Shown: positions 218-40,758, numbered from the stretch's first letter. The stretch: 60,295 nucleotides of DNA from Bacillales bacterium UBA7476 (GCA_002477275.1 DLOU01000046.1:25046-85340), one strand, 5' to 3'. Notes: generated by a model from the sequence alone, not told the origin. A program made the numbers and translations.

Positions 218-243
218 AGAGCACAATTTGTGCTCTTTTTTTA
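218..243 (+). terminator. stem-loop AGAGCACAA-TTTGTGCTCT followed by T7
   Basis: A perfect 8-9 bp inverted repeat is followed by a T-run on the plus strand and overlaps the stop codon of the SDR gene. There is no U-run in the minus direction, so it is a weak terminator for the minus-strand operon. Confidence 0.5.
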
Positions 244-1041
244 TTTGAAAAAATCTCTCTTGTTAAAACTAGCAGTCATAAATCTAAAAGCTGCTTTTCT
301 ATTTGTTAACCAAGAAAATTTAACGTTATTCTTTTTGTTATTAATTATTTTGTTTACCATAAAGTTTGCGATTGTTTCAGGATAGTCGCCTAAAATGTTA
401 TAAACTTTTTTGGTTTTTTCATCTAACTCGAACTTATCTCCATCTCCAAGTGATGTTGAAATAAAGTTAGTAATCATTATTCCAGGTGTTATTTTTCCAA
501 CTAATACGTTTGTATTTTTTTCTTCACATTCATGAGCTAATGATTCTGTAAAATAAGTAACAGCTCTTTTTGATGTTCCATATATAGATAATCCTGTTAT
601 AGTAGCATCATTACTTCCATGCCCTTCTACATTATATATTTGTCCACCTTTTTGTTTAATCATTATTGGCATTATTAATTTTGAACAAAGGATAGTTCCC
701 TTTAAGTCTATATCAATAAGTCTATTAATTACTTTTTCATCTGTTTCCCAAATAGTTTTATTATCTTGATTTACTCCAGCATTATTAATCCATATATCAA
801 TTGTTTTTACTTCTTTTAATGTTTTTTCAATTAGGTTGTTTATATCATCACTATTTGTAATATCTGTCTTAAATGACAATATTTTACCTTGTGAATCTAC
901 CTTTTCTAACTTTTCTTTTGCTGTTTTTAAACTTTCTTCATTAACATCACACAATACTACATTAAAGTTTTCTTTTCTAAATAGTTCAAGCATTGCATAA
1001 CCAAATCCTCTTGCACTACCTGTAATAACAACTGTCTTCAT
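241..1041 (-). CDS. SDR-family short-chain dehydrogenase/reductase
   Basis: 266 aa. It has the Rossmann motif ITGSARGFG, an NNAG motif and the catalytic YGTSK (YxxxK). It starts 15 nt after the upstream gene, so it is probably the last gene of the 5949->241 operon. Confidence 0.8.
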   Translation of the reverse strand: MKTVVITGSARGFGYAMLELFRKENFNVVLCDVNEESLKTAKEKLEKVDSQGKILSFKTDITNSDDINNLIEKTLKEVKTIDIWINNAGVNQDNKTIWETDEKVINRLIDIDLKGTILCSKLIMPIMIKQKGGQIYNVEGHGSNDATITGLSIYGTSKRAVTYFTESLAHECEEKNTNVLVGKITPGIMITNFISTSLGDGDKFELDEKTKKVYNILGDYPETIANFMVNKIINNKKNNVKFSWLTNRKAAFRFMTASFNKRDFFK

Positions 1042-1056
1042 ATTTTCCCTTCTTTT

Positions 1057-2070
1057 CTATCTTTCTAATATCCAATCTTGTAAATATTTAATTTTTGTTC
1101 CACAAAACTTACATTTACCAGTAGTTGCATCAATTGATGCTCCACAGTTTGGACACATAATAATATTCTTTCCTTCTTTTAATTCAAGTTTACCTTCTAT
1201 ATTTTTCTTCATAGTAAATGTATCTTTAATATATTTTGATTTTATTTTACCACTTTCGAAACTAATTATTCTTAACTCTATTTCAGTATCTACATATATA
1301 TTGTCATTTTTTTCATATTTGTTAAACGAATTATAATCAAGAATATCAAAATCAATTACATTTTCTTTTGTAAAATAGTACTTTTTAATTTCATAGTTTA
1401 AATTATTGAAAAATGTTTTTTTGTCTATTTGTGAAGTATCCCAAAATATTTTTTGTTTTTCATTTTCATTATCCTTATATCTTTTAATTGGTCCTAAAAT
1501 GATGTATGCATCAATAGTATAAAATAAATAGTATAAAATTAGTGAAAGAATAGCTCCATAAATAAATACTTTTGAAACATCATATGAATTAAATGTTCTA
1601 GATGTTGTTTTAATAAAAATAAAACTTATTATTAAACTTATTACTATATCTACTACTGCTGTTATTATTCTATAAGTAGTATTTCTTAATACTCTATCAT
1701 AGTGATATTTATTTCCTAATTCTTTATCTGTATAATCAATATTATAATATGTTCCACAATATGGGCATCCATCTAAAAAGTTTTCTATTTTAGCTTTTGC
1801 TCCACAGTTTGGACATATATTTTCTTTTTGTTCTTCTTCTTTTGATATAAAAGTATATTCTATTCTTGTATCAAAATCTTTTTCTTCGTGTTTTAATTGT
1901 CCATTTACATAGTACTTTTTTTCTAATCTTATACCTTTTTTAATATCATCGTTTTTTGAATTATCAGTGTTTCTTTCTAGAACTTCTCTATCAACAATAT
2001 ATTTGGTTTTAATGTTAATTTTATTTGAATCTAGTTTTTTCTTTTGATATTCTTCTGATATTAATGCCAT
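1057..2070 (-). CDS. membrane protein with two zinc ribbons flanking two TM helices; function unknown
   Basis: 337 aa. Zinc ribbons are CPNCGAKAKIENFLDGCPYCG and CPNCGASIDATTGKCKFCG. Hydrophobic segments are ITAVVDIVISLIISFIFI and VFIYGAILSLILYYLFY. Confidence 0.55.
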   Translation of the reverse strand: MALISEEYQKKKLDSNKINIKTKYIVDREVLERNTDNSKNDDIKKGIRLEKKYYVNGQLKHEEKDFDTRIEYTFISKEEEQKENICPNCGAKAKIENFLDGCPYCGTYYNIDYTDKELGNKYHYDRVLRNTTYRIITAVVDIVISLIISFIFIKTTSRTFNSYDVSKVFIYGAILSLILYYLFYTIDAYIILGPIKRYKDNENEKQKIFWDTSQIDKKTFFNNLNYEIKKYYFTKENVIDFDILDYNSFNKYEKNDNIYVDTEIELRIISFESGKIKSKYIKDTFTMKKNIEGKLELKEGKNIIMCPNCGASIDATTGKCKFCGTKIKYLQDWILER

Positions 2071-2081
2071 ACTACCACTTC

Positions 2082-2459
2082 CTATCTATTGTTGTTATTA
2101 TTGTTATTATTATTGTTATTATTATTGTTGTTGGAAGAACCACCTGAGTAACTGCTGTGGCTTCTACTTCCTCCCCCACTATAATGAATCGGTTCAATAT
2201 AGTGAGGATATACTTTTATTGAATCTTTTGTTAATAAAAGTCCATCAATACTAACAGATTTTCTTGTTAAAATGGTATCTTTTAAAATATCTCCATTATA
2301 TAAGGAAACACTAGTTGTTCCACCTTTTACTGTTCCATTATTTTTTACCCATTCATAGATTCTTTCTATTTCTTCTTTTGATAATTCATAGTACTTAGTT
2401 AGTTCTATACATCTTCTTTGTAAAATTAGTTCTTCATATGTTTCAGGTTCTTTATTCAT
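2082..2459 (-). CDS. small protein with a Gly/Ser/His/Tyr-rich tail ending in Asn15-Arg; translationally coupled to the radical SAM gene
   Basis: 125 aa. The tail is YPHYIEPIHYSGGGSRSHSSYSGGSS followed by N15 and R. Its start codon overlaps the radical SAM stop by 8 nt (ATGAATAA). Confidence 0.5.
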   Translation of the reverse strand: MNKEPETYEELILQRRCIELTKYYELSKEEIERIYEWVKNNGTVKGGTTSVSLYNGDILKDTILTRKSVSIDGLLLTKDSIKVYPHYIEPIHYSGGGSRSHSSYSGGSSNNNNNNNNNNNNNNNR

Positions 2460-4203
2460 TTTTTAACTCCTTATCTATATAATAAAATTCAATATTTTGA
2501 AATGGTAAATTAATCGCTTCTATATGATAATATGCATTGTTTTTTTGTTTTGTATAATGATAATCTCTTAATGCTGTTGTTGTGAAAAATAAATTGTTTG
2601 CTTTTTCTTTTGATATAAAATCTTTGTATTCTTTTATTTGATTAGTTATGTCATAGCAATAAAAATCTTTTTTATCTGATTTTGTATTATCTAGTACACC
2701 CTTATAAACTTGATGAGTCATTACATGTCTTTGCTTTGTTCTGTTCTCATCACCATATGTTACTAAATCTCCTGATAAAAGCATTATATATAATGCATTA
2801 TTCTCTGGATAATCACATTCTTCTTCTATTAAATTCTTTTTCATATATAATTTTACTTTTGAATTTGGTGTTATAAATACAAACTCTCTACTGTTTTTTA
2901 ATATTTGTGATTCAAGTTTATATTCTGTATTATCTACTTTTAATATAAATGAATCTTTATCATAGATGTATTTTAATTTAGGATCTTTATCTATTATTTC
3001 TTCAAGCGTCCCATTAATACTATCTTTCTTTTTTGGAACATATTTATCTAAATCTACTGTTCTCATTTTTGATAAATATTCGTATACAAATTCTTCATTG
3101 TATTCATCTTTTTGATAATTTCTATCTTTGTACATTTTTTGTTGAAGTAGACAAGTATAACTTTTATTTGTCTTGTATGTATTTTTTACAAACGGACAAC
3201 CTGTTTTACATAAGTATAAATATCCACATTTTGCACATTCTTCATTAAAACCTTCTTTATTATGATTCATAAATATCTTTTTTTGTGCTGTTTGTAAAAT
3301 CTTATCCACAGAATCTGTGTATATATTTCCATAATAATAGTCCTTTTGTTTCTGACCTCTAACGCAAGAATAAATATCCCCATTTTTTTCTAATAAGAAA
3401 AACTTTTCTCCACAGTTATCACAATTAGGACAATATCCTGGACCAAATTCATCAAACCATGCATTGTTTACTCCATAATCTAGGTCTGTTCCATCAAATT
3501 CTTTATGCATTCTATCATATAGTTCTAATTGTTCTTCTTCAGTAATATGATGAAGAATTCCACATGAATTATAGTCAAAACCTATCATAAAGTTGAAATC
3601 ATTCATATCAAGGCATGTATTTTTATTTAAATACTTTATATCTTCTACTATTTCATCTAATTTATTAAAATGTTCTTTAAATATAGTTGCAGATACTTTC
3701 TTTTTATTTGGTATATTCCTTAATAATTCAATATTTTTTAATATTCTATCAAGTGTTTTCTTATTACCTTTTGTAATCCTGTATTCATCATGAAGTGATA
3801 ATGGCAAATCTAGGCTTCCTGATATAGATACATTAAATTCTTTTATTGTATCTATATGTTTTTCTAAGTCATATAAATTTGTCTTTATGTGAGGATTTCC
3901 TATTTTGAAGCCACCTGATGTGATTATTTCTTTGTTTTTTTCGTAGTAATCACTTATAAATTTAATAATTTCTCTAAAATCATTTTTTGATAACGTTGTT
4001 ACTTCTCCACCATGTAGCGAAATATTAAATGGTATAACATTATTATCTTTTAGTTTATTTACTGCATATTCTAGTGTTTCTAGTGGACTATACTTTGTTT
4101 TTTCATCTTTTGTATTATCCTCTAAATAACAATATTTACAACACATATTACATGCCATTGTAGGTACATATAATAAATGAATATATTTATAATCTGTATT
4201 CAT
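2452..4203 (-). CDS. radical SAM / SPASM-domain enzyme with a ~230-aa C-terminal extension
   Basis: 583 aa. The CX3CX2C motif is at C18/C22/C25 (ACNMCCKYCY), with HGGEVT as the GGE-like motif. The SPASM signature is CGEKFFLLEKNGDIYSC (CX10GX4C) plus CAKCGYLYLCKTGC (CX2CX5CX3C) and a trailing Cys. Confidence 0.85.
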   Translation of the reverse strand: MNTDYKYIHLLYVPTMACNMCCKYCYLEDNTKDEKTKYSPLETLEYAVNKLKDNNVIPFNISLHGGEVTTLSKNDFREIIKFISDYYEKNKEIITSGGFKIGNPHIKTNLYDLEKHIDTIKEFNVSISGSLDLPLSLHDEYRITKGNKKTLDRILKNIELLRNIPNKKKVSATIFKEHFNKLDEIVEDIKYLNKNTCLDMNDFNFMIGFDYNSCGILHHITEEEQLELYDRMHKEFDGTDLDYGVNNAWFDEFGPGYCPNCDNCGEKFFLLEKNGDIYSCVRGQKQKDYYYGNIYTDSVDKILQTAQKKIFMNHNKEGFNEECAKCGYLYLCKTGCPFVKNTYKTNKSYTCLLQQKMYKDRNYQKDEYNEEFVYEYLSKMRTVDLDKYVPKKKDSINGTLEEIIDKDPKLKYIYDKDSFILKVDNTEYKLESQILKNSREFVFITPNSKVKLYMKKNLIEEECDYPENNALYIMLLSGDLVTYGDENRTKQRHVMTHQVYKGVLDNTKSDKKDFYCYDITNQIKEYKDFISKEKANNLFFTTTALRDYHYTKQKNNAYYHIEAINLPFQNIEFYYIDKELKNE

Positions 4204-4222
4204 AATCTCCCCCTAACCTTGT

Positions 4223-4984
4223 TTATGGATATATAATTCCTGCGCTAGTTATATTATTGTAGTTATATTCTCCAAATGTTCCATAATAATTAATATTTGT
4301 TGGGCTTTCCTTAAATGCTCTTTCATTAACTGATACTCCTTGTGGTAAATTAATATTATATAGACTTGTACATTGTCTAAATGCAGATGAACCAATTTCT
4401 TTTAATTTGCTATTTTCTGATATATAAACTGTAGATAGACTTGAATCTCCATAGAATGCATGTCCACCAATTCTTGTTACAGAATCAGGTATATTTATAC
4501 TTCTTAGTGATGTGCAATATTCAAATGTATCTCCCCTTATTTCTGTTAATTTATCTCCCAATTCAACTGTTTCAAGTGATTTTGCATTATAAAATGCTTC
4601 TCCTCCAAGATGAACTAAGTTATTTGGTAGTTTAATTGATTTTAATGATGTTGCATTGTAGAATGCTCCTCCATCTATATAAGTAACTGTTTCTGGAATA
4701 TCTATTTCTTCTAATGATGTACAATTTTTAAATGCACTTCCTCCAAGTGATTGTAATTTTTTTGGTAATTTAACTTTTTTTAGTTTTGTATCATTTTTAA
4801 AAGCTTGTCCTCTTATTTCTGTTATTGAATCAGGCAGCGTAGCTTCTTCTAAATTTTTCATATTTGAAAAAGCATTTCCTCTTAAACTAACTACTTTTTC
4901 TCCTTTATATGTTTCTGGGATTGTTACAGTTTTATTGTTTGTTAAACCATAAGCATAGAATCTTACCCCATAACCGTTTGGCAT
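4223..4984 (-). CDS. leucine-rich-repeat protein (BspA-like LRR)
   Basis: 253 aa with about 8 repeats of the pattern LP..(L/V)..I(G/R)..AF..C.SL..I.IP. There is no signal peptide of its own. The start overlaps the upstream membrane-protein gene by 22 nt. Confidence 0.7.
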   Translation of the reverse strand: MPNGYGVRFYAYGLTNNKTVTIPETYKGEKVVSLRGNAFSNMKNLEEATLPDSITEIRGQAFKNDTKLKKVKLPKKLQSLGGSAFKNCTSLEEIDIPETVTYIDGGAFYNATSLKSIKLPNNLVHLGGEAFYNAKSLETVELGDKLTEIRGDTFEYCTSLRSINIPDSVTRIGGHAFYGDSSLSTVYISENSKLKEIGSSAFRQCTSLYNINLPQGVSVNERAFKESPTNINYYGTFGEYNYNNITSAGIIYP

Positions 4985-5949
4985 TTTTCATAAAGTATTT
5001 TGGGTTCATAGAAAATAATAAGTGGTAAAACAATTGCAATCACCATAGTTAAAATTCCAAGTAATTTACTGTAATCTTTTATTAAATTTTCTTTTGTAGA
5101 CATTACAATATTACTTATTTTTTCGTTAGGCCTTGCTTTTATTTCTTTTGATATTATTGATAGTATATTTACTTTTCTAGATAATATAAAAACAACCATT
5201 AATATTATTATCCCTATTACATATGTAGTTTTTGGAAAATGGAAGAATATTAGTGATATAAATGTAAATATTAATAAACTCATTATTGTATTAATAATAA
5301 TTCTCTTTTTCTGAAGTTCTTTTGTAGTAAAACTTCTAAGTGAAGATAATCCTTCTTTCTTTAACTCTCTATTTACAAATTCTTCTATCATTTTTTCTTC
5401 TGATAAGCTATACATTGAATCATAATCTTTAATTGTTGATGGTAATCTAGATATTAATACTTTGATTTTTTGTGGTTCTACTGGTTTTCCACAAATTGGG
5501 CAAAATTTATCTGTTTCTTTGATTGCTGCTGAACAATTCTGACATTTTAATGCTTTTTCTGCTTCTGTTAGAGGTTTAATAGGAATTACTGATATACTTT
5601 CTCTTTCTTTTTCTCCTGCACCGGTTATTGCTTCTATCATTGAAATTATTGTTGGTACAACAAATATAGATATAAAATCAATAATTACAGCTGTATCTTC
5701 AATGATACTATACAATATCCATAACAAAACAAATTTTCCAATTAATATAAGACAGAATATACCTTTTTGATTTCCTCCATTACTTAAAATTCTTGAAAGT
5801 GGGATTATAACAAAGGGTATTTCTATAATTGTAATAACTATTTCCATGGCTATCATTCCAGAAATATCTGTTTGACCTGGGGCAGATTCTGCAAAAACTG
5901 TTAATGGTATTAATAATAACAAAAATAATAATAAACTTCTTTTTTTCAT
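4963..5949 (-). CDS. polytopic membrane protein with signal peptide and internal zinc ribbon
   Basis: 328 aa. The signal-like N-terminus is [20 protein letters not shown]. There are several hydrophobic helices and a zinc ribbon CQNCSAAIKETDKFCPICG. Confidence 0.5.
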   Translation of the reverse strand: MKKRSLLLFLLLLIPLTVFAESAPGQTDISGMIAMEIVITIIEIPFVIIPLSRILSNGGNQKGIFCLILIGKFVLLWILYSIIEDTAVIIDFISIFVVPTIISMIEAITGAGEKERESISVIPIKPLTEAEKALKCQNCSAAIKETDKFCPICGKPVEPQKIKVLISRLPSTIKDYDSMYSLSEEKMIEEFVNRELKKEGLSSLRSFTTKELQKKRIIINTIMSLLIFTFISLIFFHFPKTTYVIGIIILMVVFILSRKVNILSIISKEIKARPNEKISNIVMSTKENLIKDYSKLLGILTMVIAIVLPLIIFYEPKILYEKCQTVMG

Positions 5950-5987
5950 ATTCTTATCCTTTCAAATTATCATATTATTATATTTTG

Positions 5988-5996
5988 ATTATAACA
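5988..5996 (-). promoter_or_regulatory. extended -10 element TGTTATAAT upstream of the 5949->241 operon
   Basis: The minus strand reads TGTTATAAT about 40 nt upstream of the ATG at 5949, immediately after the terminator of the sigma gene. Confidence 0.4.
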
Positions 5997-6004
5997 TATT
6001 TTAA

Positions 6005-6031
6005 GATAAAAAAAGAGCTCTTTTAAGCTCT
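6005..6031 (-). terminator. rho-independent terminator of the giant sigma gene
   Basis: A 6-bp stem AGAGCT/AGCTCT starts right after the stop codon at 6032 and is followed by a U-run on the minus strand. Confidence 0.6.
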
Positions 6032-9000
6032 TTAATCATTATATTTATAAAACTTTTTTCTTCTAGTTATTTCTTTGATTATAGATTCTACTTTTCCTGT
6101 TTTGTTAGAACTATCCATTACTTCTTTTAAAAGTTTATCTCCTTGATCATAGTATTCCGATTTATATAAGTATTTACATAGTTTTAATTTTATAATTTGT
6201 TTTTCTGTTTCAGAAATATCTAACTCATCTAATTCATAATCTATATTTTTATTTTGAAGTATTAAACCAAAAAATTTATTATAATCAATTTGAACTTTAT
6301 TTTGCTTTTTTACTTCTATTTCTTCTTGTGGTTTAATTTTTTGAATTTCCTCTTGTATTTCTGTCTCTTTTGTTTCAGTAAAACTATCAAGTTTTTTCTT
6401 AATAAGTGTAATTAGGAAATCTAGTTCTATATTTTTCAAAAAGTCAAGGTCATTATATTTACTTAATTCATTAGAAATACTAATATAATCTTTTGCTTTT
6501 TCTCTTAAATTGTTATTCTCATCCATAAGTGATACATAACATACTCCAATCATGTAATAAACATCAGTATTATTTATGTATTTATCTTCTCTTAATGATA
6601 ATAGTTTTTTTAGTGCTTCACTAAAGTCATGATTATTATAATCTTCTTTTGCTCTTAAGAATAATTCATCTTCATTTTCAGATGGTTTTTCATTAAATTT
6701 TCTTACCACTAACTTCTTATCTTTATCACCAACAAAAATCACCTTAATATTATGATCTTTAACTAATTTTTCTTTTGCTTTTATTAAATTACTATTATTA
6801 TCATCTATAATTATAAGTTCATTATCAGTTAAATCATTATAATTACTGCTTTCAAGATTAACGTTTTCTAGAATGTTTTCAAATTCTAATAACCTGTTAT
6901 TTTTTAATTCATATCTTAATACTTTTTTTCTCTTATATATTTCTTCTATATTACCTTTTAATAAACATTCTTCGTTTAGAGAGTCTATATTTAGAATGAT
7001 ATTTAAACATATTTCACTTAGTTCTATATCGTTATCCATTAATGATTTATAAAATTTTTGAACAATTTCTGCAAGAAGTAAATTTAAATTTGGCTTTTGA
7101 ATGCTTGCTAAAAACATTAGTGGACTAGTATAATTATTGTCTTCTTCTAAAATTGATGTTCTAATCAAATTTAACGCTAAGTCAAAATATTCGTTTTTAT
7201 TATTTTGATTTAAATATCTTTTTATTTCTAATAAACCATTTTCTAGGTCATTATTAGATAGATAAATCGCTATATCTTGAAAGTTCGTATTATCTTTTAC
7301 TTCTTCCTCTTGACTTTTTTCTTTTATTTTTATTTCTCTTAGTAATATTTCTATTATATCCTTTTTGTTTTTTTGTTCTTTTAATGTATTTAAAGCTTCT
7401 AATATATTATTGTCATATATTAATAAACGTATATTATTATCATTATTATCTTCTAAACTTTTTATTTCATTTACATTAAATAATTTTACTTTTTCTTTAT
7501 ACTCTTTAGGGAGTTCATATACTTTTGAAATAAGTAAAAGTATTAAATTATAATAATGTTTTTCATTTTCTTCAGTATTGCCTATTAATAAATCTAAATA
7601 TTTTAGTGTTTGTTCATATTTTTTGTTCTTAATACTATCTTCTAATAAATAATCATTAACTTCTATATTTTTTGGATCTATTTTGTAGCATTTATCTAAT
7701 ATTTTACTTGCAAATACTTTTTGTCCTTCTCTTAGCATTCCATTATATAATTCTAAAAGAAGTTCTACTTTACTACTTGATATTTCGTAAATACCATTAT
7801 TTAGAGTAAGATAATTATTATTTATTAGATAGTCTAATGTTTCTTTTCCTACTTCAGACAAATCTTTTTCTGTTAAATTATCACCCATGCAGAATGCTAA
7901 AAAGATTTTCTTTATGGTTATTCTTTGTTTTATTTCTTCCTCTTTTTCTCTTGCTAAAATTAAATTGTTATTCTCTTCTCTTTGATTTTCTAGTCTTTTT
8001 TTAAGGGTTATTGATAACAGATTTCTAATATATTTTTTTTCATCTATAGATATATCTTTTTTTATAACTGGATTATGTAAGTCTTTTCCATAGTAATCAT
8101 GTAATTTAATAAACTGATTATTGTTAAGCCCTTTTATTACATAGTCAACTTCTTTTTCTGAATATCCATAAGCTTTGAAATAATCATAAATATTGTCTGT
8201 GTTAGAATATTTTTTTACTTTTTTATCTTGTTTTATTCTTTTTAATTTGTTCTTTATAGTTAACGTTACAAGATTTCTAAGTTGTAATTCTTCTTTATTA
8301 CTTTTTTTGATTACTTTAGTACTTTTGTAATCCTCTCCGTAATATGTTTTCAATATTTCTTTTTGGTTTCCTGTCAAACTATTTAGTACTTCTTTTATTT
8401 CATCTTCTGTAAAACCATATGCAAAACAATATTCATATAGGTTTTTTATTGAAATTCTTTGTCTTTCTTTAGCATTATTATGTTCTTTTGTATCAGGCTT
8501 TTTTTCTATATTTCTACTTTTTTCTAGTTTTTTCATTAAATTAACACATAAAAGATTTCTAACACGTATTTTGTCGTTTTTACTTATTTTATCATTTATA
8601 ATAGGATGCTCTAAATCTTTTCCATAGTATAAAATAAGTAATTCTCTTTGATTATCATTTAAATTATCTAATACTTTATTAACTTCTTCTTTTGTATATC
8701 CATGAAACTCAAAATATTCATATATATTATTTATAGATGCTCTCTTTTTAGTGCTTACAGTTTCACTATTTTCTTTTAAATGTTTTATTTTTTGCTTTAA
8801 AGTACCTGTTACTAAATTTTTAATATATTTTTTATCATTTGAATCTATTTGATCATTAATAATGGGATGTTCTAAATCTTTTCCATAATACAAATATAAT
8901 TTTTCTAATTGTTTTTCATTTAGACTATTTAATAAATTATTAATTTCTTCTTTTGTATATCCATAATTCATAAAATACTCATATATGTTATTTATATTAT

Positions 9001-25908: not shown

Positions 25909-28359
25909 ACATGGATCATTTCTACCTACTTTTGCTACTTTTTTAGGTTTCTTTTTTGATTTACCTTCTGAGTCATCTTTATTAGTACTCATTTTTTTTG
26001 CTTGTGGTTTTCTTTCGATATTTTGTCTAATTTCTGCTTTAAGTAAGAATACTGTTGTGTCTTTATCGATATTTTGAAGCATTCTATCAAACATATCAAA
26101 ACCTTCCATAGTATATGCATGAAGTGGGTCTTCTTGGGCATATCCTCTTAGATAAATACCTTCTCTTAAATGAGACATTGTATTAATATGTTCCATCCAG
26201 TAGTTATCAATTACTTGAAGTGATATAGCTTTTTCAAATTCATTTGTAATTTCTTCTGGAAGAATTGATATTTTTTCTTCATATTCTTCTACTACTTGTT
26301 TATATATTTTATCAATTAATTGTTCTTCAGTTAATCTTTTTACAGATGATTTTTTAATATCCTTTACTAATAAATTCTCATTAGCAAACTCAACTATTTC
26401 TGTTAAATCATCATCATTTAATTCACTATCTATTACAACGTGTGATTTAATTAAATCTTCTATATGATGTCTAAATGCATTAAGTACATCTTCATGAATA
26501 GTTTCACTATCAAGAATTTTATTTCTTTTTTGATAAATTAATTCTCTTTGGCTGTTCATAACATCATCATATTCAAGAATATTTTTACGAATATCAAAGT
26601 TATTTCCTTCTACTCTTGATTGTGCTGTTGAAAGCGACTTTGTTATTACTTTACTTTGAATAGCGTTATCCCCAAATCCCATTGATTGCATCATTTGTTT
26701 GATTCTATCAGATCCAAATCTTACCATAAGATCGTCTTCCATTGAAACAAAGAATTGTGTATATCCTGGATCTCCTTGACGACCAGAACGTCCTCTTAAC
26801 TGATTATCAATACGGCGAGATTCATGTCTTTCTGTACCTACTACACAAAGTCCACCTAATTGTTTTATTTCATCAGATAATTTAATATCTGTTCCACGAC
26901 CTGCCATGTTTGTTGCAATTGTTACAGATTTATGTAAACCAATTTTTGAGATTATTTCTGCTTCACGAGCATGATTCTTAGCATTTAATATTTCATGTGG
27001 TATATGAGCCTTCTTTAGGAAGTCACTTATTAATTCACTTGTTTCAATTGCAATTGTACCAATAAGTACAGGTTGCCCTGCTTCATATTTTTCTTTAACA
27101 AATTTTACTATCGCTTTATATTTAGCTGCTTTAGTTGCATATACTAAGTCTGGTGCATCTATACGAATTACTTCTTTATTAGTTGGTATTGTAATAACAT
27201 ACATGTTATAAATATCTCTGAACTCTTCTTCTTCTGTTTTTGCAGTACCAGTCATACCAGCTAATTTTTGATACATTCTGAAGTAGTTTTGAATTGTTAT
27301 AGTAGCTAATGTCTTTGTTTCTTGATTAATAGTAACATTTTCTTTTGCTTCTATTGCTTGATGAAGTCCTTCACTATAGGCTCTTCCTTTCATCAAACGA
27401 CCAGTAAATTGATCAACAATTACTATTTCTCCATCTTGTACAACATAATCTACATCTTTAGTCATTGCATAATTTGCTCTTAATGCCTGATTAATGTAAT
27501 GTACTAGAGTTGCATTATCTATATCATACAAATTTTTAATATGGAATACTTTTTCTGCTTTTTCTGCTCCACTATCATTTAAGCTAACATTTCTTGTTTG
27601 TTCATCAAAGATATAGTCTTCTTCCTTTTTAAGACTTTTTACAAATCTATCTGCATCAATGTATAAATTTGCACTATTCATCTGTCCACCAGATATTATT
27701 AAAGGAGTACGTGCTTCATCTATTAATACAGAGTCAACCTCATCGATTATTGCATAATTTAGTGGTTTTTGTACTCTATCTTCTTTTCTTACAACCATGT
27801 TATCTCTTAAATAATCGAATCCTAACTCACTATTTGTAGAATACATGATATCACAGTTATATTGTTCTTTCTTTTCTGCTGGAGACATATCTCTTAAGTT
27901 AACACCAACTGTTAATCCTAAGAATCTATGAATTCCACCCATCCAGTTTGTATCACGTTCTGCTAGGTATTCATTGACTGTAATAATATGTACACCTTTT
28001 CCTGTTAAGGCATTTAAGTATGCAGGTAAAACACCAGTTAAAGTTTTTCCTTCACCAGTTTTCATTTCTGCTATATTACCAAAATGAATTGCACAAGCAC
28101 CTAATAACTGAACGTAGAATGGTTTTTCTCCTATTACACGGAAGCATGCCTCACGTGCTACAGCAAATGCTTCTACTAATAAATCATCTACAGTTTCACC
28201 ATCAGCAAGACGTTTTTTGAATTCTTCTGTTTTTCCTTGTAATTCTGTATCTGTTAATTTATGTGTTTCTTCATCTAAAGCTTCTATTTGATCAGCAAGT
28301 TTTTGAAATTTTTTTAATTGTTTATATTCATGATCGAATAATCTATTTAATATACTCAT
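25864..28359 (-). CDS. secA: preprotein translocase ATPase SecA
   Basis: 831 aa. It has Walker A MKTGEGKT, the DEVD box and the C-terminal zinc-binding tail CPCGSGKKYKQCCGK. Confidence 0.97.
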   Translation of the reverse strand: MSILNRLFDHEYKQLKKFQKLADQIEALDEETHKLTDTELQGKTEEFKKRLADGETVDDLLVEAFAVAREACFRVIGEKPFYVQLLGACAIHFGNIAEMKTGEGKTLTGVLPAYLNALTGKGVHIITVNEYLAERDTNWMGGIHRFLGLTVGVNLRDMSPAEKKEQYNCDIMYSTNSELGFDYLRDNMVVRKEDRVQKPLNYAIIDEVDSVLIDEARTPLIISGGQMNSANLYIDADRFVKSLKKEEDYIFDEQTRNVSLNDSGAEKAEKVFHIKNLYDIDNATLVHYINQALRANYAMTKDVDYVVQDGEIVIVDQFTGRLMKGRAYSEGLHQAIEAKENVTINQETKTLATITIQNYFRMYQKLAGMTGTAKTEEEEFRDIYNMYVITIPTNKEVIRIDAPDLVYATKAAKYKAIVKFVKEKYEAGQPVLIGTIAIETSELISDFLKKAHIPHEILNAKNHAREAEIISKIGLHKSVTIATNMAGRGTDIKLSDEIKQLGGLCVVGTERHESRRIDNQLRGRSGRQGDPGYTQFFVSMEDDLMVRFGSDRIKQMMQSMGFGDNAIQSKVITKSLSTAQSRVEGNNFDIRKNILEYDDVMNSQRELIYQKRNKILDSETIHEDVLNAFRHHIEDLIKSHVVIDSELNDDDLTEIVEFANENLLVKDIKKSSVKRLTEEQLIDKIYKQVVEEYEEKISILPEEITNEFEKAISLQVIDNYWMEHINTMSHLREGIYLRGYAQEDPLHAYTMEGFDMFDRMLQNIDKDTTVFLLKAEIRQNIERKPQAKKMSTNKDDSEGKSKKKPKKVAKVGRNDPCPCGSGKKYKQCCGK

Positions 28360-28390
28360 CTAAACATCTCCCTTAATTTATTATTTTACC

Positions 28391-28418
28391 AAAAAAAAAG
28401 CCTTTTTCATAGGCTTTT
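28391..28418 (-). terminator. stem-loop AAGCC(T)/AGGCTT with flanking A/T runs, after hpf
   Basis: The sequence reads AAAAAAAAAGCCTTTTTCATAGGCTTTTTT, between the hpf stop and the secA start. Confidence 0.6.
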
Positions 28419-28429
28419 TTATAAAACTT

Positions 28430-28951
28430 TTATGATTCTAGTACTCCGTAGCCTCCATCTTTTCTCTTATATACTACACAATACTTTTCTTTTTCACTAT
28501 CCATATACATATAGAATTCGTGTCCTAGAAGTTCCATTTGAAGTACAGCTTCTTCTTCGTTCATTGGTTTTACATCAATTTTTTTATGTTTAATTATTTT
28601 TTCTGGTTCTTCTTTCTCGTCTTCTATATCAGTTACTTTTATTTCTTTAAAAGTCTTATTATGTTTAGAAAGCTTAGTTTTATTTTTTCTAATTTGTCTT
28701 TCTAATTTATCAACAGTTTTATCTACTGCTTTGTAGAAGTCGTCTTGTGACTCTTCAGAACGTAGAATTATGGTTTTTAGTGGGATTGTAATTTCCACAA
28801 TTTGATTAATATTCTTAACTTTTACTACTACACTTGCTCTTACAGATTCGCTATCTTTTAGGTATTTATTTAATTTTCCTAACTTTTCTTCTATGTAGTC
28901 TTTCATTGCATCAGTTACTTTAATCTTATCTCCTCTGATAATAAATTCCAT
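28430..28951 (-). CDS. hpf: ribosome hibernation promoting factor, long form
   Basis: 173 aa. It has an N-terminal YfiA/HPF domain and a C-terminal dimerisation domain (KPMNEEEAVLQMELLGHEFYMY). It sits immediately upstream of secA, as in B. subtilis. Confidence 0.9.
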   Translation of the reverse strand: MEFIIRGDKIKVTDAMKDYIEEKLGKLNKYLKDSESVRASVVVKVKNINQIVEITIPLKTIILRSEESQDDFYKAVDKTVDKLERQIRKNKTKLSKHNKTFKEIKVTDIEDEKEEPEKIIKHKKIDVKPMNEEEAVLQMELLGHEFYMYMDSEKEKYCVVYKRKDGGYGVLES

Positions 28952-29004
28952 AATATCCTCCTCCTTATATATATAATACCATATTTTTTTTGGAATAAAA
29001 GTGT

Positions 29005-29376
29005 TTATTTTATTTTTTTTATGTATATTATTATACTACTAATAATAAGTCCTACTCCTACAATTAGATAAACCCAGATAAGTTTATTTGTTGTACCATA
29101 TATTTCTAGTACGCCTTGTAATATTGATCCTATTAGTAAAGTATAAATACCATTTGAATATAAACTGCTCTCTATATATCCTATCTTTTTGACTTTTAAT
29201 AAAATTACATATACAAATACTCCTAATATTAAAGGAATAAGTGGCGCTAAAATCATATATTTAGAAATGACTCCAAAACTGAAATGTTCATATATTATAC
29301 AAAATAGAAAAGTAATTATTGTTATTATAGTAAATACTTTAATTTTCTTTTTAATATCCAATGTAGACAATATCAC
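29005..29376 (-). CDS. small integral membrane protein (4 predicted helices)
   Basis: 123 aa, almost entirely hydrophobic. No motif recognised. Confidence 0.45.
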   Translation of the reverse strand: MILSTLDIKKKIKVFTIITIITFLFCIIYEHFSFGVISKYMILAPLIPLILGVFVYVILLKVKKIGYIESSLYSNGIYTLLIGSILQGVLEIYGTTNKLIWVYLIVGVGLIISSIIIYIKKIK

Positions 29377-30268
29377 TTACACTCCTTTCTGAAATATTTC
29401 TTCCACTTGTAGTCGGGTTATTAATTACTTTTCCATTAAAATACATTGTTGAAGATCCTCCACCATCTAAATTATATGCTGTCTTAATATTTAATTTTTG
29501 AGCTAATGTTGCTAGTTCATATAAAGATAAACCTTCACTTTCAGATGTTCTACCATCACTAACTATAAATACATAGTGTAAGTTGTCAATCATTCCAATT
29601 AAGGTACGAGGATTGCTTGCCATACTTTTTCCTACTTCATCATTTTTAGTTACTGATATATTATAATTTTCTATAAGTGCTGGTCCAAATGAAAGCACAT
29701 TATACGCTCCTTTCTCTAGTAAACTTTCTAGACTTACATCTTCTTCTTTTATTATTTCAAATGATCCATCTTCATATATTACTAAATCTTCTTGATTACT
29801 TCTTGCTGTATTTCTATAGATTACACCATTTCTTAATACGTAACCTCTTTCTTGAGCTCCATAAAAATCTCCATTTATTGCAAGAATTGCATTATTATTA
29901 CTTGCAATAGTACTAGTATTTTCTTTTACATTTTTACCATATGAATTTTTTGCTAAAGCTGTTTTTAGAAATGAGGCATCACTTAATGTAATATCTGCGA
30001 CATATATTTTAGTATTATATTCTTCGTATGTTTTCAATTCTATTTTTATATTATCATCTTCATAACTAGTTTCGTTTTTTGTTATTTCACCACTACTTTT
30101 AGTACTAGTTTGTGTAATACTACTACTTTTTTTAACATTTGAATAAGAATTTTCTAAAACAAATGTATCTAATAAAGTATATATAGTAAATGATGTTAAT
30201 ACTATTAAAAATCCTATATTAAACTTTCTCGTTTTTATCACTCCTAAATATATATATTTTTTGTACAA
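29351..30268 (-). CDS. phosphodiester glycosidase family protein (DUF2233/NAGPA-like), membrane-anchored
   Basis: 305 aa. It has an N-terminal TM helix, then INGDFYG, NPRTLIGM and AYNLDGGGSSTMYF. The TTG start overlaps the upstream gene by 50 nt, so the start is uncertain. Confidence 0.7.
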   Translation of the reverse strand: MYKKYIYLGVIKTRKFNIGFLIVLTSFTIYTLLDTFVLENSYSNVKKSSSITQTSTKSSGEITKNETSYEDDNIKIELKTYEEYNTKIYVADITLSDASFLKTALAKNSYGKNVKENTSTIASNNNAILAINGDFYGAQERGYVLRNGVIYRNTARSNQEDLVIYEDGSFEIIKEEDVSLESLLEKGAYNVLSFGPALIENYNISVTKNDEVGKSMASNPRTLIGMIDNLHYVFIVSDGRTSESEGLSLYELATLAQKLNIKTAYNLDGGGSSTMYFNGKVINNPTTSGRNISERSVSDIVYIGY

Positions 30269-40653: not shown

Positions 40654-40758
40654 TTCTGTCTCTCCTTCCGCCATGACTCAATTTAAGTCATAGTAATTAA
40701 TAGCGAATTTATTATAACAAGTATTTTTAGATATATCAAGCTTTTTTTTATATTTTAC

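Follow-up and report, generated by a model that had tools for sequence, protein, structure and literature searches.

Much new peptide and protein chemistry has come from radical S-adenosylmethionine (rSAM) enzymes of the SPASM type, and each new substrate class has so far given a new reaction. Some of them act on proteins: the anaerobic sulfatase-maturating enzymes (anSME; AtsB/anSMEcpe; TIGR03942 / PRK13745; PDB 4K36-4K39), whose substrates are large proteins, and QhpD (TIGR03906), the quinohemoprotein amine dehydrogenase maturase, which introduces cross-links between residues of a protein subunit, not of a natural-product peptide. Others act on peptides. The dynobactin and darobactin maturases DynA and DarE (NF041298, NF038005) cross-link short peptides with fixed aromatics at β-carbons, including that of Asn in dynobactin; the precursors of the three-residue cyclophane-forming enzymes and of GrrM/OscB (TIGR04261, NF041718, NF041707, TIGR04269) are repetitive and rich in Gly, and the third residue of the aromatic-X-N cyclophane motif is frequently Asn. 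Here we describe an rSAM/SPASM enzyme encoded in a 60,295-nucleotide (nt) stretch of DNA from Bacillales bacterium UBA7476 (GCA_002477275.1 DLOU01000046.1:25046-85340; hereafter the window), where its gene forms part of a compact cassette together with that of a small protein ending in a run of asparagines.

We consider it fairly probable that the two constitute a protein-maturation pair: an anSME-like rSAM/SPASM enzyme and a substrate protein with an Asn-run tail. The best reading of the comparisons reported below is a new family of protein-maturing rSAM enzymes that would act on an Asn-run tail at the C-terminus of the partner; its closest functional analogues are probably anSME and QhpD. 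In the literature searched, no account turned up in which poly-Asn tails or tail fibres are associated with an rSAM enzyme.

An enzyme outside the curated rSAM families

Searches with NCBIfam models returned 31 matches to the window enzyme, all far below their cut-offs. The highest were DynA (92 bits against a cut-off of 450) and anSME (90.9 against 349.45); others were PapB (71.5/340), DarW (68/650), DarE (65/650), AmcB (64/425), HxsB (61/370), GrrM/OscB (56/310), YhhB (55.5/445), CbpB (54/375), QhpD (49/453), a ScfB-related model (42/855), MftC (32/265) and FxsB (32/370). Matches to the cyclophane-forming enzymes and to GrrM/OscB are partial and N-terminal, covering the rSAM core alone. The enzyme is outside every curated rSAM family tested, and a preliminary description of the window, made from its sequence, was right to treat the genes as an rSAM system without an assignment. 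Defence models (PADLOC-DB) gave just a weak pVip match to the rSAM core (29 bits) and none to the other cassette proteins.

An exhaustive homologue search of 1.84 billion cluster representatives returned only 69 relatives at E < 1e-30, fragments in many cases. Those of full length have 580-616 amino acids (aa), with identities down to 28-51%, and have in common the motif C18-x3-C22-x2-C25, eight SPASM cysteines (C258, C264, C280, C323, C326, C332, C336 and C351) and a C-terminal region rich in invariant residues. No PF05402-type match, indicative of the recognition element (RRE, PqqD-like) of ribosomally synthesised peptides with post-translational modifications (RiPPs), was found in any cassette protein; the rSAM motif begins at residue 18, so that there is no space for an N-terminal RRE.

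AlphaFold2 models the whole enzyme with a predicted local distance difference test score (pLDDT) of 85. Residues 1-360 are closest to anSMEcpe (Foldseek E 2e-13; profile E 4e-18), which is the best match both by structure and among PDB sequences. Seven of the eight SPASM cysteines lie inside the aligned stretch and C351 lies at its edge; we take C351 to be the counterpart of the eighth anSME ligand and, going by the alignment and the anSMEcpe structure (4K36), presume that both auxiliary clusters are fully Cys-ligated. Two such clusters are typical of enzymes that take two electrons from their substrate. The likeness to anSME covers the rSAM core, a complete SPASM domain in which the eight cysteines are the same, the lack of an RRE and, probably, a protein substrate rather than a short leader-containing peptide. 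There are also differences: the position after the third SPASM Cys, presumably that of the catalytic Asp277 of anSMEcpe, is V, H or P in the family described here and is followed by invariant Arg and Gln; there is no sulfatase gene and no C/S-x-P-x-R motif, the partner ending in an Asn run; and the enzyme has an extra C-terminal domain.

This domain (aa ~395-583, ~190 residues) has an alpha+beta fold and, modelled alone, reaches a pLDDT of 90 and a predicted template-modelling score of 0.85. Invariant residues are N469, Y483, G484, K490, H493, T542, H549, N556, Y559, H560, N565 and P567, and two motifs stand out, YGDExRTKQxH and TTxALRDYHYxKxKxNAYYHIQAINLPF. The domain has no Pfam match, no PDB sequence match in a profile search and no significant structural match (Foldseek against the PDB, best E 0.011, template-modelling score < 0.4; against BFVD, best E 0.003, score 0.33).

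The conserved cassette and its asparagine-tailed partner

Scanning one genome per GTDB species, we found a relative of the enzyme in 222 species. Synteny was analysed in the best 80 of these species-level loci, in which the enzyme is 68-89% identical to that of the window. All 80 are gut or rumen metagenome-assembled genomes labelled Bacilli, Tenericutes, ‘Mycoplasma sp. CAG:877’, ‘Clostridium sp. CAG:465’ and similar, which we take to be members of the RF39 lineage. A tblastn search with seven window proteins recovered, in fixed order and spacing in essentially every sufficiently long locus, a first zinc-ribbon membrane protein (ZnTM1), a leucine-rich repeat (LRR) protein, the rSAM enzyme, the small partner protein and a second zinc-ribbon membrane protein (ZnTM2); the two membrane proteins are linked as strictly as the enzyme-partner pair. 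Other window genes within 30 kb were seen in just 0-7 of the 80 loci: the surroundings change while the cassette stays intact. Clustering of the neighbouring open reading frames (ORFs) revealed no further recurrent partner, the next commonest family occurring in 10 loci, and no sulfatase domain was found in the cassette proteins or among recurrent neighbours. Median identities to the window proteins are 75% for the enzyme, which is the most conserved gene of the cassette, 60% for ZnTM2, 57% for the LRR protein, 44% for the small protein and 37% for ZnTM1.

The preliminary description had proposed a six-gene operon that also included a short-chain dehydrogenase/reductase (SDR) gene. For the genes of ZnTM1/LRR, rSAM enzyme, small protein and ZnTM2 the proposal stands, as they are co-conserved across the 80 species and the enzyme belongs to no characterised rSAM family. 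It does not stand for the SDR gene, which was found in a single locus and so lies outside the conserved unit, nor for the separateness of the first two ORFs, which form one gene elsewhere.

In all RF39-type loci the enzyme gene is followed by one for a protein of 105-129 aa, with a conserved body and a tail of the form …(I)PHY(T)PSS…(Y)SGGSSS-N(n)-R. The window partner follows the same plan: a conserved body of ~90 aa, then …PHY…SGGSS, 15 asparagines, R and stop; its start overlaps the enzyme stop by 8 nt. The GGSSS-N(5-17)-R tail is present in every RF39-type locus with sequence at this position, the run having a median length of 13 and being terminated by R in 64 of 76 cases. In two loci (L029, L036) where tblastn had missed the partner, the body is divergent and the tail the same; in another (L067) the partner has internal stops. 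Outside the partner gene such tails are rare: the window has one run of six or more asparagines among its 64 ORFs, the partner tail, and the 80 loci have 70 tails with such a run among 1361 ORFs, all in the partner gene. Codons within the run are mixed, AAC and AAT, at both 25% and 64% GC.

The same pairing occurs in distant genomes, several of them GC-rich. At 57% GC, one locus (L081) encodes a 120-aa protein ending GTWT-N10-G, with no membrane genes nearby. Three further loci have tails of GQS-N18-G (L083, 64% GC), RSS-N18-G (L127, 60%) and RNS-N16-G (L128, 62%); at 38% GC (L084) an upstream ORF that is cut by the contig end terminates in at least 14 asparagines and G, and at 41-47% GC five loci (L074, L077, L098, L137, L142) hold the full cassette with runs of 8-15. 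In the GC-rich lineage a ~160-aa protein with two transmembrane (TM) segments overlaps the start of the rSAM gene (L083 753-1259; L127 4468-4938). It is a recurring membrane partner whose sequence is unrelated to the RF39 zinc-ribbon proteins.

The family extends to phages. The window enzyme is a member of phrog_1802, an uncharacterised phage family annotated ‘radical SAM domain-containing protein’, whose profile it matches over the full length (aa 13-582 against 49-555 of 556 positions, E 1.3e-42; PHROGs sets no curated cut-off), and IMG/VR contains 13 full-length relatives. Phage members are 30-34% identical to the window enzyme and follow an Asn-run-tailed protein plus a 140-211-aa protein (phrog_10241). 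Unlike the RF39 cassettes, phage loci have tail-fibre or small structural proteins as partners, together with phrog_10241, and no zinc-ribbon membrane proteins. Campylobacter phage CAM-P21 (MW462221.2) has its baseplate genes first, followed in order by those for tail fibre, phrog_10241 (211 aa; 27418-28053), rSAM enzyme (585 aa; 28053-29810), DUF1353 chaperone, fibre-like protein and sheath; the enzyme has the length and the C-terminal domain of the family, and the fibre ends …STNNNNY. Other CJIE1-like phages have only the first 485 nt of this fibre gene in common with CAM-P21, which argues that the C-terminal part of the fibre, phrog_10241 and the rSAM gene form an exchangeable module.

Other lineages repeat the triad of tailed protein, phrog_10241 and rSAM enzyme, and in them the upstream protein ends ATNNNNY (L092), SCNNNNN (L093), GSGPNNNF (L082, a Mu-like prophage), HSGNNNSKCSG (L086), NNNGNNNNSCSGGW (L097 / L126) or SSNNNNNNRG (L121); a collagen-like fibre ends GYNNNNNGNNH (L206), two proteins of one locus (L096) end HGNNNS and FSNNNNNNLAGNV, and the phage-type ends include NNNNNNLAGNV. 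In two weak cases the ends are STGNNF (L094) and MGNNS (L095). We use the term fibre just for CAM-P21-like loci, L206 and, weakly, L082, since annotation or profiles support it there; on the large viral contigs L096 and L121 the big neighbouring proteins have no PHROGs match. A Cys lies beside the run in three phage-type tails, YSC-NNNNN (L093 2587-3441), NNNN-SC-SGGW (L097 5275-5529) and NNN-SKC-SG (L086 247-477), two of which have the form N-x-x-C, reminiscent of the NxxC β-thioether motif; most tails have no Cys.

When profiles of the partner groups were compared (hhalign) just the tails aligned, so that what the partners share is the tail and not the body. Neither the partner bodies of different lineages nor the RF39 partner and phrog_10241 could be taken as homologous: the alignments gave the poly-Asn stretch or nothing. 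The 125-aa partner has no Pfam or NCBIfam match and no significant match among PDB sequences. Judged by these comparisons, what defines the whole enzyme family, GC-rich and phage members included, is the Asn-run tail. The preliminary description had noticed the tail, which is real, and treated it as a curiosity; it is no by-product of AT bias. Most tails lack an aromatic residue beside the run, and neither an aromatic nor a Cys occurs at a fixed spacing from it, although W-T-N or F-S-N is found at the run start in two partners.

Many otherwise unrelated partners also have a short strand-like motif of low information, (I/V)(N/D)G(K/x)x(V/L), at a distance of 12-36 residues before the run (for example SIDG, INGKAVTNW, INNKVVLDW, VNGVASNT and AIDGPAF). 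It is carried by the window partner and by those of L082, L086, L093-L097, L121, L127 and L206, and may be a recognition strand.

The ZnTM1 and LRR parts, which in the window are two ORFs (ORF 1 and ORF 2) overlapping by 22 nt, are spanned by one ORF (median 581 aa) immediately upstream of the enzyme gene in at least 72 of 78 loci. The closest relative (L001) reads through the junction (…IYEKMDNGYGVRFYAYGL…; …EPVIIYEKMDNGYGVRFYAYGL…); the window reads TATGAAAAATGCC, with a run of five A at the frame change, and one extra base restores the frame. Going by this alignment, the overlap is a frameshift in an otherwise single gene of ~580 codons, for which an error of assembly, a genuine mutation or slippage may account. 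An ATG is located exactly at the junction, and the LRR part could still be made separately from it.

ORF 1 has a signal-peptide-like N-terminus, seven hydrophobic segments and a CxxC...CxxC zinc ribbon at aa 135-157. The ribbon falls in a long loop rich in K/R that follows the fourth segment, and in the fused protein the LRR domain comes behind the seventh; from hydropathy and charge distribution the ribbon is predicted to be cytoplasmic and the LRR domain extracellular. A few species have a non-LRR or an additional C-terminal domain at the LRR position, variation of the kind expected where a protein is exposed at the surface. In ZnTM2 the zinc ribbons are at aa ~86-107 and 306-327 and a two-TM hairpin is at aa ~135-193, which would put both ribbon-bearing domains on the same side, presumably the cytoplasm. 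Comparison of ZnTM2 with PDB sequences gave nothing significant, and domain and profile searches found no transporter domains in the two membrane proteins.

A tail-maturation model and its alternatives

How might such a pair work? The enzyme would bind the flexible, Gly/Ser-rich Asn-run tail, which is probably the substrate or its handle; with no RRE present, the extra C-terminal domain is the candidate tail binder. Cleavage of SAM would give a 5'-deoxyadenosyl radical that takes a hydrogen from a residue within the run or immediately ahead of it, and the auxiliary clusters would carry away an electron, leaving a cross-link or a dehydrogenation, possibly repeated along the run. Since all ligands of the two auxiliary clusters appear to be Cys, as in anSME, a net oxidation of this kind is the most likely outcome, ahead of a redox-neutral epimerisation. 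A cyclophane or thioether is unlikely as the conserved reaction, given the lack of an aromatic or Cys at a fixed spacing. The aromatic-X-Asn cyclophane motif in particular was considered as the conserved chemistry and rejected, many tails having no nearby aromatic; likewise the chemistry of QhpD, an rSAM/SPASM enzyme too, needs a Cys that most tails lack. Modification could also be processive along the homopolymer, for instance as serial cross-links or epimerisations that yield a rigid, protease-resistant tail.

In RF39-type genomes the matured small protein probably docks at the cytoplasmic zinc-ribbon domains, or is handed through the membrane proteins to the surface, the predicted location of the LRR ectodomain; this membrane-protein step is the weakest part of the model. 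In phages, the position of the enzyme gene behind fibre genes with Asn-run ends suggests maturation of the fibre tip. A broader proposal, which we advance tentatively and as somewhat short of an even chance, is that the Asn run is a portable tag for an unrecognised rSAM protein modification that a dedicated family, equipped with a new substrate-binding domain, would perform: on receptor-binding fibre tips in phages and, in an uncultured gut clade, on a small protein working with an LRR envelope complex. We know of no earlier enzymatic chemistry on a homopolymeric Asn sequence, should the tail indeed be modified, and phage receptor-binding proteins would then undergo post-translational maturation of a new kind. 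The family has a clean, searchable signature, the unique C-terminal domain plus a partner ending in an Asn run, and it is spread over at least 222 species of an abundant uncultured gut lineage, GC-rich bacteria and a phage isolated on a cultured host, CAM-P21, which would make tail modification directly testable.

Several observations weigh against maturation of the tail. The tail could be a mere recognition tag, the modified residue lying elsewhere, for example in the invariant PHY of RF39 partners. The partner has no signal peptide and the loci have no protease or transporter, so its link to the membrane proteins is purely genomic. The assignment of cysteines to clusters follows from alignment and from the anSMEcpe structure, and is presumptive. 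In two phage fibres (the ends STGNNF and MGNNS) the run is merely NN, possibly by chance, and the phage loci are related, so that they represent ~8-10 independent lineages, not about 20. P0144 (L207/L208), the member that diverges most, lacks a neighbour with an Asn run and may be a sub-family with a different substrate. The protein encoded upstream of it ends AHLNKF, and three genes downstream there is another radical SAM gene.

An alternative is a classical RiPP system, in which the 125-aa protein is a precursor with a ~90-aa leader whose Gly/Ser/Asn-rich core is modified, cleaved and exported as a bacteriocin or signal, the zinc-ribbon proteins serving as exporter or immunity proteins. The nearest curated relatives of the enzyme are peptide maturases (DynA, PapB, DarE, AmcB, HxsB), the putative precursor gene is translationally coupled to the enzyme gene, co-conserved with it and adjacent to it (adjacent or near in other lineages), and long leaders are known from Nif11 and NHLP precursors. 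Yet a leader protease, an ABC transporter and an RRE were found in none of the 80 loci, whether among cassette proteins or recurrent neighbours, and the membrane proteins have no transporter domains. The enzyme keeps a median 75% identity over the sampled species, with no bacteriocin-like patchy distribution seen, and its phage homologues pair with structural proteins of 284-1000 aa, which fits maturation of a protein better than release of a peptide. We regard a RiPP pathway as unlikely. To the idea that the Asn-tailed protein is a chaperone-like accessory or adaptor, the true substrate being another protein (the LRR membrane protein, the fibre body) or a small molecule, we give slightly less credence still. 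The RF39 partner body is well conserved and folded, phage loci hold the additional conserved phrog_10241 protein, and the anSME-like architecture recalls enzymes that act on large proteins; but partner bodies are unrelated between lineages, with the tail alone in common, the minimal locus (L081) consists of enzyme and tailed protein only, and in phages the tail belongs to the fibre itself.

Two further explanations are highly improbable. That the run is compositional noise or a slippage-prone repeat without function, beside an orphan anSME-like enzyme and unrelated neighbours, might be thought from the low GC content of the window (26%; Asn codons are AT-rich) and from the variation in run length, 5 to 17, between species. 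It is already contradicted by tails at 57-64% GC, by mixed codons, by the restriction of N6+ tails to the partner gene among all ORFs of the loci, and by the constant setting of the run, always C-terminal with small residues before it and R or G after it. No greater weight attaches to a regulatory module in which the zinc-ribbon membrane proteins control a giant sigma factor, with the rSAM enzyme as sensor. Many anti-sigma factors are zinc-binding membrane proteins and in the window the cassette adjoins a 1717-aa sigma gene, from which the preliminary description derived both a link to sigma and a likeness to anti-sigma factors. Neither was borne out: the sigma gene is adjacent in none of the 80 loci, and in the window a terminator-like hairpin and a separate promoter-like site lie between it and the cassette. 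The ribbons are of the plain, generic CxxC...CxxC type, with no anti-sigma match in Pfam or NCBIfam (e.g. zf-HC2 / RsgI / RskA).

Layout of the window

The features of the window are listed in Table 1. The coordinates bear out the six tightly packed minus-strand ORFs of the preliminary description, with gaps of 15, 11 and 19 nt and two overlapping pairs, and Pfam, NCBIfam and sequence support its domain calls (SDR, two zinc-ribbon/TM proteins, LRR, rSAM/SPASM and Asn-tailed protein). The promoter it placed upstream is present as a consensus match (TTAAAA, 16 nt, TATAAT, with the extended -10 TGTTATAAT at 5996-5988), followed by an AAAGGA ribosome-binding site before the ATG at 5949. Promoter-like matches are not enriched in this AT-rich DNA (45 in the window against 50 expected from shuffles), and we rate the site as only a plausible promoter of the cassette for that reason. 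No terminator separates the SDR gene from ZnTM2, 15 nt upstream, and in the window the SDR is probably co-transcribed with the cassette.

Table 1. Positions of the cassette and of neighbouring elements in the window.
Feature	Position	Strand	Basis
Perfect palindromic hairpin, right after SDR stop	218-236		
SDR-family oxidoreductase, 266 aa	241-1041	-	adh_short (Pfam)
Second zinc-ribbon membrane protein (ZnTM2), 337 aa	1057-2070	-	Pfam zinc ribbon, TM segments
Partner protein, 125 aa, C-terminus N15-R	2082-2459	-	ORF translation
Asn run, 15 codons mixed AAC/AAT, then AGA (Arg), TAG	2088-2132	-	
rSAM/SPASM enzyme, 583 aa	2452-4203	-	Radical_SAM, Fer4_12, SPASM
Enzyme C-terminal domain, aa ~395-583	2455-3021	-	Predicted fold and invariant residues
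ORF 2, BspA-type LRR_5 protein, 253 aa	4223-4984	-	LRR_5, E 7e-54
A5 run at ORF 1/ORF 2 frame change	4984-4988	-	
ORF 1 (ZnTM1), zinc-ribbon/TM protein, 328 aa	4963-5949	-	Pfam, hydropathy
Promoter-like site	5988-6004	-	Consensus match
Terminator-like hairpin and T-run, directly after sigma gene stop	6012-6033	-	
Giant sigma-70 family protein, 1717 aa	6032-11185	-	
L31-Firmicutes ribosomal protein leader	40662-40693	-	Rfam RF03156

The palindromic hairpin downstream of the SDR gene (AGAGCACAAATTGTGCTCT on the minus strand) has a T-run on the plus strand and a weak T-run on the minus strand; it may be the terminator of a convergent plus-strand gene, or bidirectional. At the other end of the cassette, the giant sigma-70 family protein has regions 1.2-4 at aa 114-380 and at least five tandem repeats of ~85-95 aa, starting at aa 561, 734, 821, 916 and 999, with the consensus NIYEYF..GYTKEE.N..L..L...Q.E.L..YYGKDL.HP; a partial Sigma70_r4_2 match falls at aa 833-861. 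Its best named relative is MzaA (225 bits), and with a cut-off of 800 it is not a member of that family. The L31 leader scores 37.7 bits against a gathering score of 33.3 and is consistent with a chromosomal Firmicutes/Bacilli origin of the window.

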